Source of the DNA: Basidiobolus ranarum
Lineage: Eukaryota
Assembly: GCA_040143965.1 (NCBI GenBank)
Contig: JASJQH010000062.1
Coordinates: 1 to 35,895 of the forward strand
Direction: 5' to 3'
DNA length: 35,895 nucleotides
Part shown: positions 3,467-22,255 of the stretch, one piece after another
Position numbering within the stretch: the stretch's first letter is position 1
Layout: each line of letters opens with the position of its first letter
Program-made: the position numbers and the translations under genes
The notes under the pieces: model-generated
The model's database searches: none
Told to the model about the DNA's origin: nothing
Seen by the model: only the letters and a program-made list of their open reading frames with translations

Positions 3467-5393
3467 CTACGGAAATGTATAAATCTTGGGTTGTAGTGCA
3501 TAAGCTGCTTTCAATCCCTTTCTATTGATAAGCTGCTTGAAGTATAGACTAGGAATCTCATGAACCTTATGCCCAAATGATTCCCAGACTGCATCCACTC
3601 CAGCATTTTTACTCGTCATTTTTCGGCCGATGCATCCAATTGCCCAGTTATTAGCTGAAATCGCTGGTCGCGTTAGAATTAATTGGTTTGCTTCACAGTT
3701 CCATAATACCTAGAGATTAAAAATGGTTGAGTTGTAAAACTTCTGACCTCAAGTTCATTTAATATGAATTTACCTGAGTTACGCCAGCCCAGCCTTGACC
3801 GCTTCCAGCTAACAGTAAAGATCGATTCATTACTTTTCAATATACTGTGGCTCTTAATTGCTGACATATTTACACTTACCAGAGCCTCTATTCTCAACGC
3901 TTATTCTGCCATCTGTTTTAACGTTGTCGTAACTATAATCGTAAAAAATATTTGATTAATCCAAATAAGTCTCAGTCAATAGGACAGTAACTAAACCCTC
4001 ACAGTGTTCCAATCCCGAAATGATTGTGAGGTCCGATATCGGCGTATTGGTCAACACCAACAGCATAGCTAAACACATTCGGGCCTTGCACTCTTGATCC
4101 GGTGGAGAAAGCATGGCGGGATTTCCGAGAGAAAACTCTTAAAAATAGAGAACTCTGTCCATCGACTTGAAAAGAATATCTTCTAGCTCCTGTAATCATA
4201 GAGACAGGGTCGAGATCTGCTGAATCTTGAACTGTAACATATCTAGCACTAGGTCGAATATTAACACATCCATGAACAAAGTGCTTTGACACTATATCGC
4301 TGACCCATATGTTTTCGACTCCTCCTTCAATTATTACAGCATCCGTTGCATGCTTCTCATCCGAATCTTCTTGCCCTCTTACAAATTCGGATATAAACTG
4401 AAGGTTTTCAATGCCGATTTCTCGAATACGTTTGGGCTCATTGATACGTACGAATTCGGCACCACCATATCTGGCATCTAAAGACATAAGTAAGGGTGTA
4501 TCAATGGTGATTTTTTTGGTAGTTCGGTCGATATCTACGATACGCTTTTCGAATACGAAATCAAATCTCCCAGATTGCCATTGACGTACTCGTTTACCAT
4601 CACCACGAGTTGGCATGCGATCCATACCTATATCATCTAAAGGTATGTCTTAGCTAAGATGTATTTTTACTATCGATTTTACTAGCTACTTACGAATCCA
4701 ATTGGAGGGCGAGGGTCTATGGATAACAATGGTTTGCCCCACCTCCATATGTTTGTAAGAAGCAGACCACTCCACCTGAAATTCGGTAGCTCCGATAGGT
4801 ATTGGGGGGTCAGTAATTAAATAGACTTTACCACTATTACTCAGATTTCGGTAAGGTGGTAAATGTGGACCAGCAATCCTAATTAAAGGACGTAATTTCG
4901 TCCCAGTGGCAATGATAGTGGTAGTTTTGGCACTATCTCTTGTCAAATTTCCTGAAAATAGTTGATGGGCAGGGTTCTCTCCACATCCTTCTCCTCTTAA
5001 TACTACACCGTCTTTGTTTAAAACGAGAGTTTCAGAGACTCGATATATCCCCGCTTTTAATAGAACTGCTCCTCTTATACCATCGTTGCCCAGGGGTAAC
5101 GATCCTACTGCATTGATTGCCGCCTGTATACGTTGAGTGTCGTCTACAGCATTGGGATGAGGATATAATACTTTTACTACTGGAACTGAGGGAAAAGGTA
5201 CACCACCCCCTTTATATCCAGCATGGGAGAAGTCGGGGATTTTGTTCCCTTCAGCGTCTCCTCGATAGACTAATTTATCAGTCTCAAGGTCGTTATATAC
5301 CGAAAAGATCGATCCACTACCAGAAGGGGAACCATAAATTCCCCTTCCCATACGGTTAAACATAAGGAGAAACAGAAGAATATGGTAAAACAT
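3467..5393 (-). CDS. Bacterial-type right-handed beta-helix / pectate-lyase-superfamily-like protein, about 554 aa, 5 exons: 5393-4694, 4636-4003, 3932-3880, 3808-3774, 3709-3467; possibly secreted
   Basis: Splicing joins two track ORFs and three further exons into one frame. Motifs: IPDFSHAGYKGG, DDTQRIQAAIN, GAVLLKAGIY, GVVLRGEG, WIHDIGMD, RYSF, GPNVF, GPHNH, LYDNV, NRGSAGSGQGWAG, VLWNC, NWAIGC, WES, PSLY. Hydrophobic N-terminus MFYHILLFLLMF. Confidence 0.85.
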
Positions 5394-5939: not shown

Positions 5940-7622
5940 TTATAAACGCACAACATGAACGGTGAATCGACCAGAGTTGAATTTCGCTAATTTTTTCTGT
6001 ATCTTTGCCAAGGATTTCTCAACAAAAGATCCTTCAACTAACAGGCTTTGCTCAGGAAGTGTTAGAGTTAAAGCGCTGGGCTTATCATCTGAGCTTGAAG
6101 GAACGATGCTGAGATCCACATTGCGAATCAGATCCATTTCTAGGGGACATAATGCCACTAGAAAGCTAAGCATCTCGCCAATCAACTTGGCTCTTTTAAG
6201 AACCGGTTCAGGAACAATATGCTGAACTTGCTCTACCCTAGGAACTGACAACTCTGCGCCGTAACTGTGAGATAAGATTAGTGCAAGAAGAATACGCTCA
6301 TCATGTATCAGCCCAGGGAGGTTGCTGAGAAGACCACCGGTGAGTGGCAGTCTAAATGCGATATTGGCAGCGGACTCTTTAGGATATTTCAAAAGGTATC
6401 TGGACAAGTAAATTGCACTTTTAACGAGACGATCGTTCAGACAGCGTGCCACTATTGACTTTGAAGTTTTATCCTTGTATTGAATACTAATAAGTGGCTT
6501 AACAACTCTATAAACCTCAAGGACATCTTGATCTGTAGGAGGATTAAAAGATCCGGTGATGAACTCTTTGACTCCACTAATTACCGGGTCCTGGGCTTGT
6601 TCCTCTGAAGACATCAAGTCGAAATAGCTTCCTTGACGCACTCCTCCCTCAGAAAAATAAACATCTTCAACTTGGTTTAATACTTCTAAGGCTGCACTTA
6701 AAAGAACACAGCAGGCAGGTATCTGTTTGGCTCTTCGGTTAGAAATTCTAAATACGTCAAGCTGATCTGTAGCGATGTTGCTATTCTGAGATAAAAATTC
6801 ATCAATAGTTTTTTTCAACTCCTTAACTGAAATTCTGTATCCATTGATGATGGAGATCGGGTACTTGTGCTTCATCATTGACAAATACCCTAATGCTCGA
6901 AATCCACCTCCAGAAAGATATAGAGTTTTGCGCATAACACCGGAGACTTCGTTGGGAACTTTTATTTCTTTTAGGGAATGTTGCATCGCTTCCAAAATCT
7001 CCCGATATATCGCCTTGTGCTCTTCTTGGGTTTGACATTTTGTTAATCGACGAGCTAGTAAAGCCGCACCAAATGGTAATGATTGCGCGTTATCACTACT
7101 CATAGGAGGATTATCGGGATATTTTACCACATAATTAAGTTCTACACTACCACCTCCTAGATCCATAACAAAACCATCCACAGTAGTAAAGCTGGACATT
7201 ATTCCCAGAGCAGTCATTCTTGATTCCCCTTCTTTGGTTAGAAGTTCCACTTTCCAGCCTGTAGTCTGGTTTATTTGATCTTGAATTGCTTGGGAGTTTG
7301 GGGCAGTGCGTAATGCCTCCGTAGCAACGACACGTACTTTTTCCACACCTGCCTCGTTGCAGAGAGTTTGAAAGCGTTTGAAAGTGCGTACCAAGTCTCC
7401 GACAACCTCGGAGGAAATAGAAACTGGTTCTGTTTTGTCGGAACTGGTTGAATTGATCTCTTCGGGATTTTGAGCGTCAAACAAGGAGATTGGTGAGCGT
7501 TCTTCATAAATGATAGGTAAATGTCTAGCCAGAGTAGAGAAAATGCAGAAGCGGATCCCATTGGAGCCGACGTCTACGATGGCTACAGGTCTTTGGCGCG
7601 GTGAAAAGGTTTGTGTGGACAT
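5940..7622 (-). CDS. RTG2: Retrograde regulation protein 2 (Ppx/GppA phosphatase family), 560 aa, intronless
   Basis: Motifs AIVDVGSNGIRF, LARHLPIIYEER, VVATEALR, MDLGGGSVEL, SLPFGAA, YLSGGGFRALG, YPISIINGY, FSEGGVRQG, as recalled for fungal Rtg2. Confidence 0.9.
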   Translation of the reverse strand: MSTQTFSPRQRPVAIVDVGSNGIRFCIFSTLARHLPIIYEERSPISLFDAQNPEEINSTSSDKTEPVSISSEVVGDLVRTFKRFQTLCNEAGVEKVRVVATEALRTAPNSQAIQDQINQTTGWKVELLTKEGESRMTALGIMSSFTTVDGFVMDLGGGSVELNYVVKYPDNPPMSSDNAQSLPFGAALLARRLTKCQTQEEHKAIYREILEAMQHSLKEIKVPNEVSGVMRKTLYLSGGGFRALGYLSMMKHKYPISIINGYRISVKELKKTIDEFLSQNSNIATDQLDVFRISNRRAKQIPACCVLLSAALEVLNQVEDVYFSEGGVRQGSYFDLMSSEEQAQDPVISGVKEFITGSFNPPTDQDVLEVYRVVKPLISIQYKDKTSKSIVARCLNDRLVKSAIYLSRYLLKYPKESAANIAFRLPLTGGLLSNLPGLIHDERILLALILSHSYGAELSVPRVEQVQHIVPEPVLKRAKLIGEMLSFLVALCPLEMDLIRNVDLSIVPSSSDDKPSALTLTLPEQSLLVEGSFVEKSLAKIQKKLAKFNSGRFTVHVVRL

Positions 7623-7873
7623 AAGTGAGGTTTGTCTATCCTTGAATTCTCGAATTGGCGAATATTGGTTATGAAGGGTACTTGGAGGGGAATTGAATAT
7701 TAGGCGATTTCTATTTTTAAAGATGACAAGGCAAATCTGGTCTTCATAAATTGCGCATACAAGAATGTCGTAACCATAGATTTGATTACATTTTATGAAA
7801 GAAATTCACTTTGCTGATGTGACTAAGTGGTTCTCTTGTGATGTGATGTTGTACCAAGCATTTATTTTATTGG

Positions 7874-15846: not shown

Positions 15847-16335
15847 ATGCCTCGCTCATCTAGACGCTCAGCACCTGCTGCTCGCTCAGCCCCTCGCACT
15901 CAAACTCGCTCAGCTTCCACTGCACAACCTCGACATGCTCCTCAACAATCTGCTCCTCCTCCACCAACATCTATGACCTCAGCACCACCAGCCGCTATGG
16001 GACGTCCGCAACCTCAGCAACCTGGTTTATTTGGGCAAATGGCTTCTACAGCTGCTGGTGTAGCCGTTGGTTCTGCAGTTGGCCATTCTATCGGTCACGG
16101 AGTTTCTGGCATGTTTGGTGGCAGAGATAATTATGAAGAACCTGAAGCTACTCCTCAAACTTCAACTCCCCAATATGATACTGCTTCTTATCAAGCAACC
16201 AATAGTCATAGCTGTGATGCCGATCTAAAAGCTTTTACTAATTGCTTAGACGCGAATAATAACGACCTTTCGGCTTGTCAGTTTTATCTTGATATGTTAA
16301 AGCAATGTCAAGCGTTCGCTGCCAATCGTGTATAA
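15847..16335 (+). CDS. MIX17: Mitochondrial intermembrane-space twin CX9C protein (Mix17/CHCHD2/CHCHD10 family), 162 aa
   Basis: Arg/Ser-rich N-terminus, PGLFGQMASTAAGVAVGSAVGH segment, C-terminal CX9C-X10-CX9C. Confidence 0.96.
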   Translation: MPRSSRRSAPAARSAPRTQTRSASTAQPRHAPQQSAPPPPTSMTSAPPAAMGRPQPQQPGLFGQMASTAAGVAVGSAVGHSIGHGVSGMFGGRDNYEEPEATPQTSTPQYDTASYQATNSHSCDADLKAFTNCLDANNNDLSACQFYLDMLKQCQAFAANRV

Positions 16336-18816: not shown

Positions 18817-21800
18817 ATGGTAATTGTAACTTCTGGGAATAGACGTTTGGCTATTCAGTAACTGACCATTCTATCCTTTTTTTAGAGTAAAATGGATATT
18901 GATAAGTCTGATGCGACCATCGATGAAGGATTATATTCTAGACAATTGTAATTACATCTCGCTAAGATTGTACTCTAAACATATGTATTAACGTTTATTC
19001 AACATAGGTATGTCTTGGGCCACGAAGCCATGGCTAAGATGAGCAGCGCCAATGTTCTACTTGTCGGTCTTAAGGGTTTAGGAGTTGAAATTGGTATCAC
19101 GTCGCTTTCAAAGCCTATTTAATCTTGTATAACTACTTAGCATCTTTTTTCAACAAATATGTAGCTAAAAATGTTGTTTTGGCTGGTGTCAAAAGTGTAA
19201 CTCTATATGACCCTGAGACTGTTGAGATCTCCGATCTTGCTGCACAATTCTTCCTTACAACCGAAGATGTTGGTAAAAACAGAGCCGAGGCTTGCGTTCA
19301 TCGTCTTGCCGAACTCAACCAATATGTACCAGTTACTGTTCTTGATGGTGAGCTGACCACTGACAAATTAAGCCAATTCAAGGTATTTATTTTCTACAAC
19401 CTGAAAAGTACTCAACCCATTACTTGGATTATAACTGATATTGACGATTTCAGGTCGTGGTGTTGACTGAGACATCATTAGAACGTCAACTCGAAATCAA
19501 TGACTTTACTCACAAAAATGGCATCTGCTGTATTGTTGCTGATAATCGTGGGTTGTTTGGGTTAGTAATTCTAATTAGTTTTGTATTGTTTTCCTTTAAT
19601 TTAATTATTATGATCCAAAATTTAGTATGGCTTTCTGCGATTTTGGCGAAGGTTTCATCGTCAATGACGCTACTGGTGAGAACCCACATACTTCTATGAT
19701 TGCAGCTGTCTCCAAAGACGCAGAGGCTGTGGTGACCTGCTTAGATGAATCTAGACACGGTCTTGAAGACGGGGACTATGTTACTTTTACTGAGATCAAG
19801 GGAATGGAGGAACTGAACGGTTGTGAGCCCCAAAAGGTTAAGGTTTTGGGCCCATATACCTTTAGTATTGGGGATACTTCTGCATTCAATGACTATGCTG
19901 GTGGTGGTGTATTTACCCAGGTCAAGATGCCCAAGATTTTGAATTTCGTAAGTTCTCGTTCTCTCTGTATATTTTATCTGACAAGGATTAGCTAATTTGT
20001 TGTTTTGTTAGAAATCACTACGTGAATCGCTCAAACAATCGGAATTCTTAATCACCGATTTCGCCAAGTTTGATAGACCTGCTCAACTCCATGTTGGTTT
20101 CCAAGCTCTTGACGCTTTCAGAGTCAAACACTCTCGTCTTCCTAAGCCAAGAGACGAAAGTGATGCTAATGATGTCCTTCAGATCGCCAAGGATATTAAT
20201 GACAAAGCTGACGAAAAGGTTGAGCTATCTGACAGCTTCATCAAAGAATTATCTTATCAGGCAATGGGGTATCTCTCCCCCATGTCTGCTTTCCTCGGTG
20301 GCGTTGTTGCCCAAGAGGTCTTGAAAGCTTGCAGTGGAAAATTCCACCCAATTTATCAGTATCTTTACTTCGATTCATTGGAGTCTCTTCCTACTAGCAC
20401 TACATTAAATGCTGAAGAGTGCAAACCTATCGGCTCTCGTTACGATGGACAGATTGCTGTTTTTGGTCGCCAATTCCAGGAAAAGCTATCAAATGTTCGA
20501 CAATTCCTTGTCGGAGCTGGTGCCATTGGTTGCGAGATGCTTAAGAATTGGACCATGATGGGCTTGGCTACCGGCCCGGAAGGTGTGATTCATCTTACCG
20601 ACATGGATACTATTGAAAAAAGTAACTTGAACAGACAATTTCTCTTCCGCTCAACTGATGTTGGTCAGCTAAAGTCAGAAACTGCTACTAGAGCTATCGT
20701 CAAGATGAATCCTGATATCTCCGGAAAGATCGTTTCCCATCAAGATCGTATTGGTGTCGAGACTGAGAATATCTATAATGATAGTTTCTTTGCTTCTCTA
20801 GATGGAGTTACCAACGCTCTCGATAACGTAGAGACTCGTAAGTACATGGACAGACGCTGTGTTTTGTTCAGAAAGCCACTTTTGGAATCTGGTACTCTTG
20901 GTACCAAGGGTAACACTCAAGTTGTCATTCCCTTCTTGACCGAATCGTACTCTTCATCTCAAGATCCACCAGAGAAGTCAATTCCCATTTGTACTTTGAA
21001 GAATTTCCCTAACGCTATAGAACACACCATCCAGTGGGCACGTGATCTATTCGAAGGTCTCTTTAAGCAACAACCCGAAAACGCCAATCTCTATCTTTCC
21101 CAGCCCAACTTTATTGAACAATTGTTGAAACAAGGAGGTAGCCAAAAAGACGTACTTGACGGTATCAGTAGCTGTTTAGTAACCGCTAAGCCAAGCTCAT
21201 TCCAAGATTGTGTCGCATGGGCAAGACTTCAATTCGAAGAACTTTACCATAACAATATCATGCAACTACTTTACAACTTCCCTAAAGACTCTGTCACTTC
21301 TACCGGCACTCTTTTCTGGTCTGGGCCAAAGCGTGCTCCCAATGTCCTTGACTTTGACTCTGAGAACAAGCTCCATATGGATTTCATTGTAGCCGCAGCC
21401 AACCTTCGTGCATTCATCTTTGGTTTACCCAACGAAACCGATCGTCAAAAGATCCGTGAGATGACCGCAAATGTCATGGTACCTGAATTTACACCTCGTC
21501 AAGGCGTCAAGATTCAAGTTAATGAGAATGAAAACGATAACTCCGCACAAAACTCTGATGAGGCGGAACTTGAGCAAGTAGTCAAATCTCTGCCCAAGCC
21601 TGATGATTTGAGTAACCTTAAATTGAACCCAGTAGAGTTTGAGAAGGATGATGACACCAACTTCCATATAGATTTTATTACTGCCACCTCTAACCTCCGG
21701 GCTACTAATTATAATATCAATCTTGCTGACCATCATAAAACCAAGTTCATCGCTGGTAAGATTATCCCTGCCATTGCCACCACTACAGCTTTGATCACTG

Positions 21801-22255
21801 GTCTTGTGTGCTTGGAATTATACAAAATTATTGATGGTAAGAACAAGCTTGAAGACTACAAGAATGGCTTTATCAACCTGGCTCTTCCATTCTTTGGATT
21901 CTCGGAGCCTATAGAGGCGCCTAAATTCAAATATCACGATACCGAGTTCACTCTTTGGGATCGATTCGACATCAATAAGGACATCACACTTCAAGAATTC
22001 ATTGAACATTTCAAAAAGAATTACGATCTTGAAGTCACAATGGTATCCTGTGGTGTCTCCATGCTCTATAGCTTCTTCATGCCCAAAAAGAAGTTAGAAG
22101 AGCGTAAAACGATGAAATTCTCCAAACTTGTGGAGACAGTCTCAAGAAAAGAAATTCCCGAGCATGTTCAAGCCTTAATTGTGGAGATTTGTGTGAATGA
22201 TCGTGATGGAGAGGATGTTGAGGTACCCTATGTTCGTATTCAAATTCGGGATTAA
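18817..22255 (+). CDS. UBA1: Ubiquitin-activating enzyme E1, about 1013 aa, 7 exons: 18817-18819, 18886-18947, 19008-19093, 19165-19382, 19454-19560, 19626-19947, 20012-22255
   Basis: [59 protein letters not shown], catalytic [22 protein letters not shown]. All introns are GT-AG. The ATG-only first exon is less certain; an alternative start is ATG 18892. Confidence 0.98.

Follow-up and report, generated by a model that had tools for sequence, protein, structure and literature searches.

An intron-bearing gene of probable bacterial descent in Basidiobolus ranarum, with relatives in Mortierellomycota

Genes of bacterial origin are a described feature of the fungal genus Basidiobolus. According to the part of Tabima et al. 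2020 available to us (PMC7466969), 2–5% of its gene models are bacterial in origin, and such genes have host-like composition, fungal neighbours and, in ~40% of them, introns; bacteria-derived genes of early-diverging fungi that later gained introns are likewise described in the accessible portion of Ciach et al. 2024 (PMC11291939). Here we describe a gene on the minus strand (5393..3467) of a 35,895-nucleotide (nt) stretch of Basidiobolus ranarum DNA (assembly GCA_040143965.1, contig JASJQH010000062.1, positions 1 to 35,895; hereafter the window), whose 554-amino-acid (aa) product, P0001, belongs to an unnamed bacterial protein family of ~500 aa and was probably acquired from bacteria. Among characterised families, only polysaccharide lyase family 29 (PL29) has a repeatable sequence link to it; the founding member, BT3328, is an endo-acting lyase of chondroitin, dermatan and hyaluronan, as stated in the available part of PMC9067506.

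The bacterial family and the gene model

A full-length search with P0001 returns 1042 proteins beyond Basidiobolus at E ≤ 1e-10 (best E 1e-119), with query cover of 90–99%. The best 120 of these 1042 matches, which are those listed, are 38–45% identical to P0001, and the named ones among them come from Blastocatellia, Armatimonadota, Pedobacter, Mucilaginibacter, Chitinophagaceae and Opitutaceae, together with one Mortierella protein; against the bacterial relatives (Bacteroidota, Acidobacteriota, Verrucomicrobiota, Latescibacterota and others) the identity is about 36–47%. Exon 1 alone, used as query in an exhaustive search, finds 2625 representatives at E ≤ 0.001. In contigs sampled at one genome per species, at least 557 bacterial loci encode a relative, each as one uninterrupted match, and the best 80 of these loci, which were analysed, belong to Bacteroidota (Pedobacter, Desertivirga, Chitinophagaceae and Prevotella), Latescibacterota, Opitutae and other Verrucomicrobiota, Acidobacteriota, Armatimonadota, Poribacteria and Marinomonas. 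The relatives are thus overwhelmingly bacterial, as had been claimed in an earlier note on this DNA, made from the sequence alone.

Full-length collinear homology and a shared motif set place P0001 in this family. Twenty columns are invariant over 130 family rows, and P0001 retains 87 of the 92 columns that are at least 90% conserved in 119 bacterial rows, differing at V198I, R264K, R439H, W440F and H467Q. A 16-residue insertion, ENPAHQLFSGNLTRDS, follows the RGEG motif at residues 139–154 (region ~137–157, window ~4923–4985, minus strand); it is common to both Basidiobolus species and absent, in the alignment, from bacteria and Mortierellomycota. Copy number and architecture vary among the bacteria. 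In the family of Pedobacter boryungensis, 31 of 101 sampled genomes have 1–6 copies, with many ~1050-aa forms, which occur in many Sphingobacteriaceae-type genomes; P. boryungensis itself has a second family member of 707 aa (locus L162, G001:C3:495525-497081), ~30 kilobases (kb) from the first. The best non-Basidiobolus match, P0061 (955 aa, a JGI protein), comprises two complete domain copies in tandem (residues 34–511 and 536–941) behind a bacterial-type signal peptide.

The B. ranarum gene consists of five exons and four GT–AG introns of 57, 70, 71 and 64 nt, which join into a 1665-nt in-frame coding sequence (CDS). Its translation equals the annotated protein K7432_002352 letter for letter, so that the 554-aa product, the four intron lengths and the 53- and 35-nt exons proposed in the earlier note are reproduced exactly, and every motif listed there is found in P0001: IPDFSHAGY, DDTQRIQAAI, WIHDIGMD, GPNVF, GPH, LYDNV, NRGSAGSGQGWAG, WNC, NWAIG, WES and SLY. 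Exon 1 (700 nt, 4694..5393), whose translation matches P0001, runs from the ATG at 5393–5391 through codons 1–233 plus 1 nt, and contains the hydrophobic leader (~residues 1–21, 5331–5393), with IPDFSHAGY and DDTQRIQAAI as motifs of the N-terminal cap. Intron 1 (57 nt, 4637..4693; GTAAGT..TTTAG, GC 0.30) interrupts codon 234 in phase 1, at the junction WIH/DIGMD. The central part of the protein is encoded by exon 2 (634 nt, 4003..4636), which holds a 2-aa insertion specific to fungi (DRTTKKITID) as well as the conserved E310, H329, RRY 385–387, RH 407–408, GPNVF and GPH 435–437; it ends at intron 2 (70 nt, 3933..4002; GTGAGG..TATAG, GC 0.30), in phase 2 in codon 445, where the junction GTL/YDN is conserved. 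Exon 3 (53 nt, 3880..3932) encodes YDNVKTDGRISVENRGS and has the length of the matching stretch of the Pedobacter protein P0021, and is followed by intron 3 (71 nt, 3809..3879; GTAAGT..GTTAG, GC 0.31) in phase 1 in codon 463. Exon 4 (35 nt, 3774..3808) encodes AGSGQGWAGVTQ, with a glutamine in place of the histidine of bacterial GSGHGW, and intron 4 (64 nt, 3710..3773; GTAAAT..TCTAG, GC 0.28) lies in phase 0 after codon 474. WNC, NWAIG, WES and SLY are held by exon 5 (243 nt, 3467..3709, including the TAG stop at 3467–3469); all of these features are on the minus strand.

In a 23-row alignment with 18 intronless bacterial homologues, the junctions WIH/DIGMD, GTL/YDN, RGS/AGSGQGW and VTQ/VLWNC fall in gap-free conserved columns, and between GTL and WNC, P0001 and P0021 do not differ in length. 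As judged from this collinearity, the four predicted junctions are supported beyond chance. The gene is genuine and intact in B. ranarum, and an orthologue of 551 aa in Basidiobolus meristosporus is 86–88% identical to P0001.

Fungal homologues, probable descent and intron gain

With the Mortierella homologue P0265 as query, 96 Mortierellomycota proteins stand among the best 120 of 2052 matches, which are those listed. Thirteen genera are represented (Mortierella, Linnemannia, Podila, Dissophora, Gamsiella, Lobosporangium, Actinomortierella, Entomortierella, Gryganskiella, Lunasporangiospora, Modicella, Haplosporangium and Benniella), with several paralogues per genome, and P0001 is 42–45% identical to P0265, no closer than to the best bacteria. 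Absence of the family from other fungi is wrong for Mortierellomycota and, with the family spread through Mortierella fungi, the case is less isolated than the earlier note held. It had also set a wide, vertically inherited fungal distribution against horizontal transfer; the family is indeed widespread in one further phylum-level lineage, but it does not extend across fungi in the matches listed, where named eukaryotes are limited to Basidiobolus (2) and Mortierellomycota (96). Most of the Mortierellomycota homologues (among P0319–P0349) carry an MSLEQ(L/I)GKRAGRM segment, then ~100 Q/P-rich residues, and are without a hydrophobic stretch; two paralogues of M. alpina, P0343 and P0346, have a hydrophobic leader and a signal-bearing look. 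These N-termini suggest that in Mortierellomycota the protein acts inside the cell or has been re-targeted in some other way.

Taken together, the trees and an approximately unbiased (AU) test give moderate support to the nesting of the fungal sequences within bacteria, and favour, but do not prove, fungal monophyly. A FastTree search over 232 of the 285 collected proteins (lengths of 430–720 aa only) groups 60 Mortierellomycota, the two Basidiobolus and two other rows with a support of 32. A quick LG+C20 tree of 59 rows (every fourth bacterial row, seven chosen rows and 12 Mortierellomycota, with seven long-branch rows dropped) splits the 14 fungal rows from the 45 bacterial rows with a value of 80 in the Shimodaira–Hasegawa-like approximate likelihood-ratio test (SH-aLRT). 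When 24 distant domain-trimmed rows are added to orient this tree (83 rows), 17 of the 24 form their own clade (SH-aLRT 99), and the fungal clade (82) joins a clade of named Pedobacter/Chitinophagaceae rows (86) inside further bacterial groups (90 and 90), a nesting of moderate support. In a 71-row version, with 16 rows dropped and four Gln-bearing rows added, the SH-aLRT values are 47 for the fungal clade and 90 for the fungi plus a Bacteroidota-type clade, and in an IQ-TREE analysis under LG+F+G4 with 1000 ultrafast bootstraps (UFBoot), the fungal clade receives 96, its union with a 12-row bacterial clade 70 and a further nesting node 61.

The fungal proteins have two further characters in common. 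The first is the 2-aa insertion between R264 and D279 (DRTTKKITID / DQATRTVTID), with a conserved Thr, which is present in both Basidiobolus and in 54 Mortierellomycota rows and absent from 290 other rows and from all 13 bacterial rows nearest the fungi. Seven non-fungal rows that also have it were considered as donors and rejected, as they belong to a distant subfamily without GPH and GxGHGW and with 33–38% identity. The second is the glutamine of the GSG(H/Q)GW motif, found in 80 of 85 fungal motif matches versus 7 of 234 elsewhere (His in 227 of 234); one of the seven non-fungal Gln rows, P0315, lies in the sister bacterial clade.

We consider it likely that the gene descends from a bacterial gene and was later given introns. 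The starting point would be an intronless gene from a large family of bacterial glycan depolymerases, extracytoplasmic and of the right-handed-beta-helix type, which entered a fungal genome before B. ranarum and B. meristosporus diverged; after entry it would have drifted to the host base composition and gained four short spliceosomal introns and a hydrophobic leader of eukaryotic kind, and the Mortierellomycota copies would come from the same bacterial subfamily. The old horizontal transfer that had been proposed from the sequence is supported by the nesting of the fungal rows inside bacterial sequences, the eukaryotic neighbours of the gene and a composition that matches that of its neighbours.

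A single origin of the fungal copies, after which they evolved apart for long or passed from fungus to fungus, seems very slightly the better account than two transfers. Under the latter, Basidiobolus and the Mortierellomycota ancestor would each have received the gene from related Bacteroidota-like donors, and the insertion and the glutamine would come from an unsampled donor lineage or have arisen in parallel; we regard this as a possible but rather doubtful history, its auxiliary assumption included. The fungal rows stay together in all four free searches, the bacteria-only branch (SH-aLRT 80) agrees and UFBoot reaches 96 under LG+F+G4, yet both fungal groups stand on long stems (0.99 and 0.78 substitutions per site), so that the grouping may be long-branch attraction. 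Weighing against a single fungal clade, the AU test does not reject a tree that constrains Basidiobolus to join the 12-row bacterial clade apart from Mortierellomycota (difference in log-likelihood 9.4, AU p = 0.369, LG+F+G4), and under a site-heterogeneous model this tree is slightly better than a short free search (−45386.4 vs −45392.5); with the constraint in place, the next neighbour remains Mortierellomycota. One origin is favoured by the 2-aa insertion and its conserved Thr, present in 0 of the 13 nearest bacterial rows and 0 of 290 other close rows, whereas the Gln variant of P0315, in the sister clade, and the different N-termini (a hydrophobic leader versus MSLEQ..GKRAGRM and the Q/P-rich extension) fit two. 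So do the absence of any common intron position, detailed below, and the share of 2–5% bacterial-derived gene models reported for Basidiobolus in the available part of PMC7466969.

A metagenome scan with the fungal alignment identifies five Mortierella-type contigs (L081–L085), 57–80% identical to P0265, with three recurrent GT–AG introns; in P0001-equivalent positions, a phase-0 intron follows residue 223, and codons 418 and 471 each contain a phase-1 intron. The first is present in L081, L084 and L085, the second in L082, L084 and L085, each also in L083 by alignment gap, and the third in L081, L082, L083 and L084. The coordinates are L081:602-685 and 1422-1520, L082:243-335 and 492-575, L084:141-225, 806-893 and 1050-1131, and L085:1664-1741 and 2328-2421; the introns of L083 were taken from alignment gaps, two of its three automatic calls being poor (non-consensus ends and low score). 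L081 is without the middle intron, so that intron content varies between paralogues or species.

Comparison of these three introns with the four of Basidiobolus reveals no coinciding position, the nearest pairs being 11 nt (codon 471 vs after codon 474) and ~31 nt (after residue 223 vs codon 234) apart, and the introns would therefore have arisen after the fungal lineages separated, or after separate acquisitions. Since the relatives are bacterial, the fungal gene is nested in bacteria and the locus is eukaryotic, the introns must post-date the acquisition, and they can be recognised as secondary because a second fungal lineage with the same family has introns elsewhere. The intron gain after transfer that had been claimed is consistent with the intronless bacterial homologues and with the position of the gene among eukaryotic genes, with host composition. 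As a case of naturalisation of a bacterial gene by a fungus, the locus is clean and open to checking, with an age bracket set by its host composition and by the split between B. ranarum and B. meristosporus, than which it is older. It is also a useful case for where new introns land, as both lineages placed introns near the same conserved motifs.

Family assignment, predicted function and export

A Pfam scan of P0001 yields no family at cut-off. The NCBIfam model NF058554 (BT3328/PL29) matches 19 of 23 family members at E ≤ 0.01 (best E 1e-13) over model positions ~313–630 of 840, the best member shown being P0021 with 48.4 bits; with scores of 12–48 bits against a cut-off of 1100, the family is, on the profile evidence, a distant relative of this glycosaminoglycan lyase family and not a member. 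Weak matches at E ≤ 0.1 are to DUF4955 in the C-terminal part (14 of 23 members) and DUF6298 (8 of 23), and the Pect-lyase_RHGA_epim family PF12708 is matched at that level by 5 of 23 members (best member E 5.7e-8). P0001 itself has no match to DUF4955 (PF16315) or DUF6298 (PF19815), and P0021 reaches 14 bits for DUF4955 against the 25 required; the C-terminal neighbours in the ESM Atlas carry DUF4955 and DUF6298 domains.

A 130-member profile searched against solved structures finds 7chu_A, a 'putative pectin lyase' (E 7.7e-7), over the ~70-residue N-terminal cap only, and for the rest of the protein the search detects no related solved structure (of 9 chains at E ≤ 1, 7chu_A alone is significant). 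The ESM Atlas model of the P0001 sequence is confident, with a predicted template-modelling (TM) score of 0.90, and its structural neighbours are bacterial clusters (TM 0.81–0.87), some fused to BACON domains, type IX secretion system (T9SS) tails or F5/8-C domains. A right-handed beta-helix of the pectate-lyase type is tentatively suggested by the sub-threshold PF12708 matches, the N-terminal-cap links, database names and the Atlas summary. Our literature searches found no characterised member of the family and no paper on DUF4955, DUF6298, PF16315 or PF19815. The family is very large and conserved, without a Pfam model, a solved structure detectable by sequence or a paper found, yet it is located in glycan-utilisation clusters, and characterising one of its members would probably establish a new family of the CAZy type.

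Within 6 kb of the homologue, genes of PF07470 (GH88/GH105) are present at 27 of the 80 bacterial loci (local phmmer, union of the listed sets), and all 26 of these with a taxon-named record are Bacteroidota (the 27th is L007). The other neighbours within this distance include GH29 (17 loci), GH28 (15), GH36 (9) and GH95 (8), and, among lyases, alginate-lyase-type genes (5) and PF14099 of the polysaccharide-lyase type (4). At four Bacteroidota loci searched with Pfam, PF07470, GH29, GH95, GH36, GH31, GH28, GH97 and lyase-type genes are nearby. CBM96 is fused to 7 of 60 longer homologues, and its founding member binds alginate, as stated in the accessible part of PMC9971899; further fusions are to dockerin, CBM6, BACON, T9SS tails and F5/8-C. 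A protein of 683–704 aa without a Pfam match is conserved beside the homologue at 12 of the 80 loci (L010:2460-4508(-), L003:3485-5596(-) and 10 more), and is a possible functional partner.

The sequence and context evidence gives about an even chance that the family is a polysaccharide lyase acting on an acidic glycan; P0001 itself is probably still active as an enzyme on an acidic polysaccharide that contains uronate, with beta-elimination as the likeliest mechanism. The same origin with other chemistry, that is, a glycoside hydrolase (for example, of pectic or fucosylated glycans) or a non-catalytic, binding or adhesin-like beta-helix, is in our view a possible but weaker proposition. Alone among characterised families, PL29 has a repeatable link (to 19 of 23 members), and it is a lyase family, although many beta-helix families are hydrolases and the best Pfam hint, PF12708, is common to rhamnogalacturonase A and epimerases. 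PF07470 enzymes are the commonest neighbours (27 of 80 loci), and in the chondroitin sulfate locus a GH88 member degrades the unsaturated disaccharides made by lyases, according to the available part of PMC9067506; the GH28, GH29, GH95, GH31, GH36 and GH97 neighbours point instead to general breakdown of plant or complex glycans. The CBM96 fusions point to polyuronates, and the retention of 87 of 92 conserved columns is contrary to a decayed, non-catalytic protein, whereas the fungal H467Q and R439H may alter or abolish the bacterial chemistry.

Several observations weigh against the lyase assignment and against a secreted depolymerase in both fungal lineages. P0001 itself scores 13.2 bits for PF12708 (E 0.081; gathering threshold 27 bits) and 11.8 bits for NF058554 (E 0.051; cut-off 1100). 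The neighbour counts are raw counts without a chance control, four non-Bacteroidota loci searched with Pfam have no consistent glycan-gene context, and a hydrolase would account just as well for the GH28 and fucosidase neighbours. Three near-invariant bacterial columns are changed in the fungal proteins (R439H, W440F and H467Q), so that activity may be altered. The Q/P-rich extension of most Mortierellomycota homologues, which are without a signal peptide, is odd for a secreted depolymerase.

For Basidiobolus, export of P0001 is probable from its N-terminus. The best 9-residue Kyte–Doolittle window, at residues 4–12, has a value of 2.67 (3.09 in B. meristosporus) and is followed by small residues, which agrees with the short hydrophobic leader first noted in the translation. 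B. ranarum infects animals and people, and a secreted lyase on host-type or microbial acidic glycans would matter in this fungus, if true.

A more specific role seems very improbable: a lyase family for fucose- and glucuronic-acid-rich wall or slime polymers of zygomycetes (mucoran/glycuronan type), captured by both fungi to remodel their own fucosylated uronan walls. As equally improbable parts of it, soil Bacteroidota would eat such polymers using GH88/GH105, GH29/GH95 and GH36, and the new role would show in the exchange of His for Gln and in the Mortierella forms that look intracellular. The proposal joins the neighbour sets and the composition of glycuronan, two lines without a direct link. 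In glycuronan, the ratio of fucose to mannose to galactose to glucuronic acid is 5:1:1:6 (available part of PMC6433966), and the Basidiobolus and Mortierellomycota lineages are singled out for rich fucose metabolism and fucosyltransferases in the accessible part of PMC10481521.

Genomic setting, remaining alternatives and known systems

An ancient vertical fungal gene, lost from most fungi, with the bacterial copies representing a deeper ancestral family or acquired from fungi, is very unlikely. The family is present in two deeply separated fungal lineages, with introns and a fully host-like composition, but no intron position is common to the two, the fungal rows lie several nodes inside bacterial diversity when distant subfamilies orient the tree, and many independent losses would be needed. 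The bacterial range is huge, with many phyla covered (2625 representatives at E ≤ 0.001 with the N-terminal part, at least 557 species loci), and the named eukaryotes among the matches listed are Basidiobolus and Mortierellomycota only. Against so narrow a fungal range stands an ESM Atlas feature search that lists a cluster of 87 mostly Ascomycota proteins (score 0.98), an unaligned lead that was not recovered with the C-terminal half of P0001 alone as query; if these are true members, the family extends in fungi beyond Basidiobolus and Mortierellomycota.

The locus is in fungal DNA, as indicated by the gene directly upstream on the same strand (5940..7805, minus), a separate eukaryotic gene with Ppx/GppA and RTG2 C-terminal domains (RTG2-like). 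The same contig holds a UBA1-type E1 enzyme (20012-22255), a eukaryotic-family match, and further eukaryotic-family open reading frames (ORFs) for a CHCH protein, a MYND finger protein and a class-III aminotransferase. The enzyme CDS has a GC content of 0.428 and a third-position GC content (GC3) of 0.33, against 0.416–0.438 and 0.36–0.43 in four neighbouring ORFs, with intron GC of 0.28–0.31. Host genes on both sides, host composition and introns are evidence of physical integration in host DNA. The nearest non-Basidiobolus relatives are bacterial, as bacterial contamination of the assembly would have it, but that and a mis-predicted gene model are ruled out by the place of the gene between eukaryotic genes on a 35.9-kb contig, four GT–AG introns that a bacterium could not remove, host-like composition, the 86–88% identical orthologue on a 42.7-kb contig of a second, independently sequenced species (B. 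meristosporus) and the collinearity of the model with homologues.

Just downstream of the enzyme gene, three long open stretches on the plus strand (934-1479, 1694-2140 and 2430-2855) have no Pfam match and probably belong, as exons, to a gene that looks unannotated or is lineage-specific. In the ORF at 15847-16335 (plus strand), a CHCH domain occurs with a match to the 'bacterial' DUF2076 that stays below threshold (27.9 bits; cut-off 38).

Compared with known systems, P0001 is closest to its unnamed bacterial family, exemplified by P. boryungensis HQN85_04765 and by P0021/P0022, with which it aligns collinearly over the full length at 39–47% identity and has in common the motifs IPDFSxxGY, DDTxRIQxAI, WIxDIGMD, RRYSF, RH, GPNVF, GPH, LYDN, GSGxGWAG, WNC and SLY. 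It differs in having four introns, a eukaryotic leader in place of the bacterial signal or lipoprotein peptide, the 16-residue and 2-aa insertions, and the changes R439H, W440F and H467Q. The likeness to PL29 (BT3328 of Bacteroides thetaiotaomicron) consists of the repeatable profile link and of GH88-type neighbours, as in the chondroitin locus, whereas the present family has ~500 aa against an 840-position model and scores of 12–48 bits. With PF12708 (rhamnogalacturonase A/epimerase) and 7chu_A, the N-terminal cap motif DDTxxIQxAI ... G.Y ... L.G.G aligns, but only ~60–70 residues match. Finally, the gene resembles the Basidiobolus xenologs of PMC7466969, as described in its available part, in bacterial origin, host composition, fungal neighbours and introns; it differs from those and from the genes of PMC11291939 in that its family is shared with Mortierellomycota, where the intron positions are different, which the accessible portions of the two papers do not describe. 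In sum, the naturalisation of bacterial genes in Basidiobolus is already known, and the spread of one family over two fungal lineages with non-shared introns is a modestly interesting addition to it.

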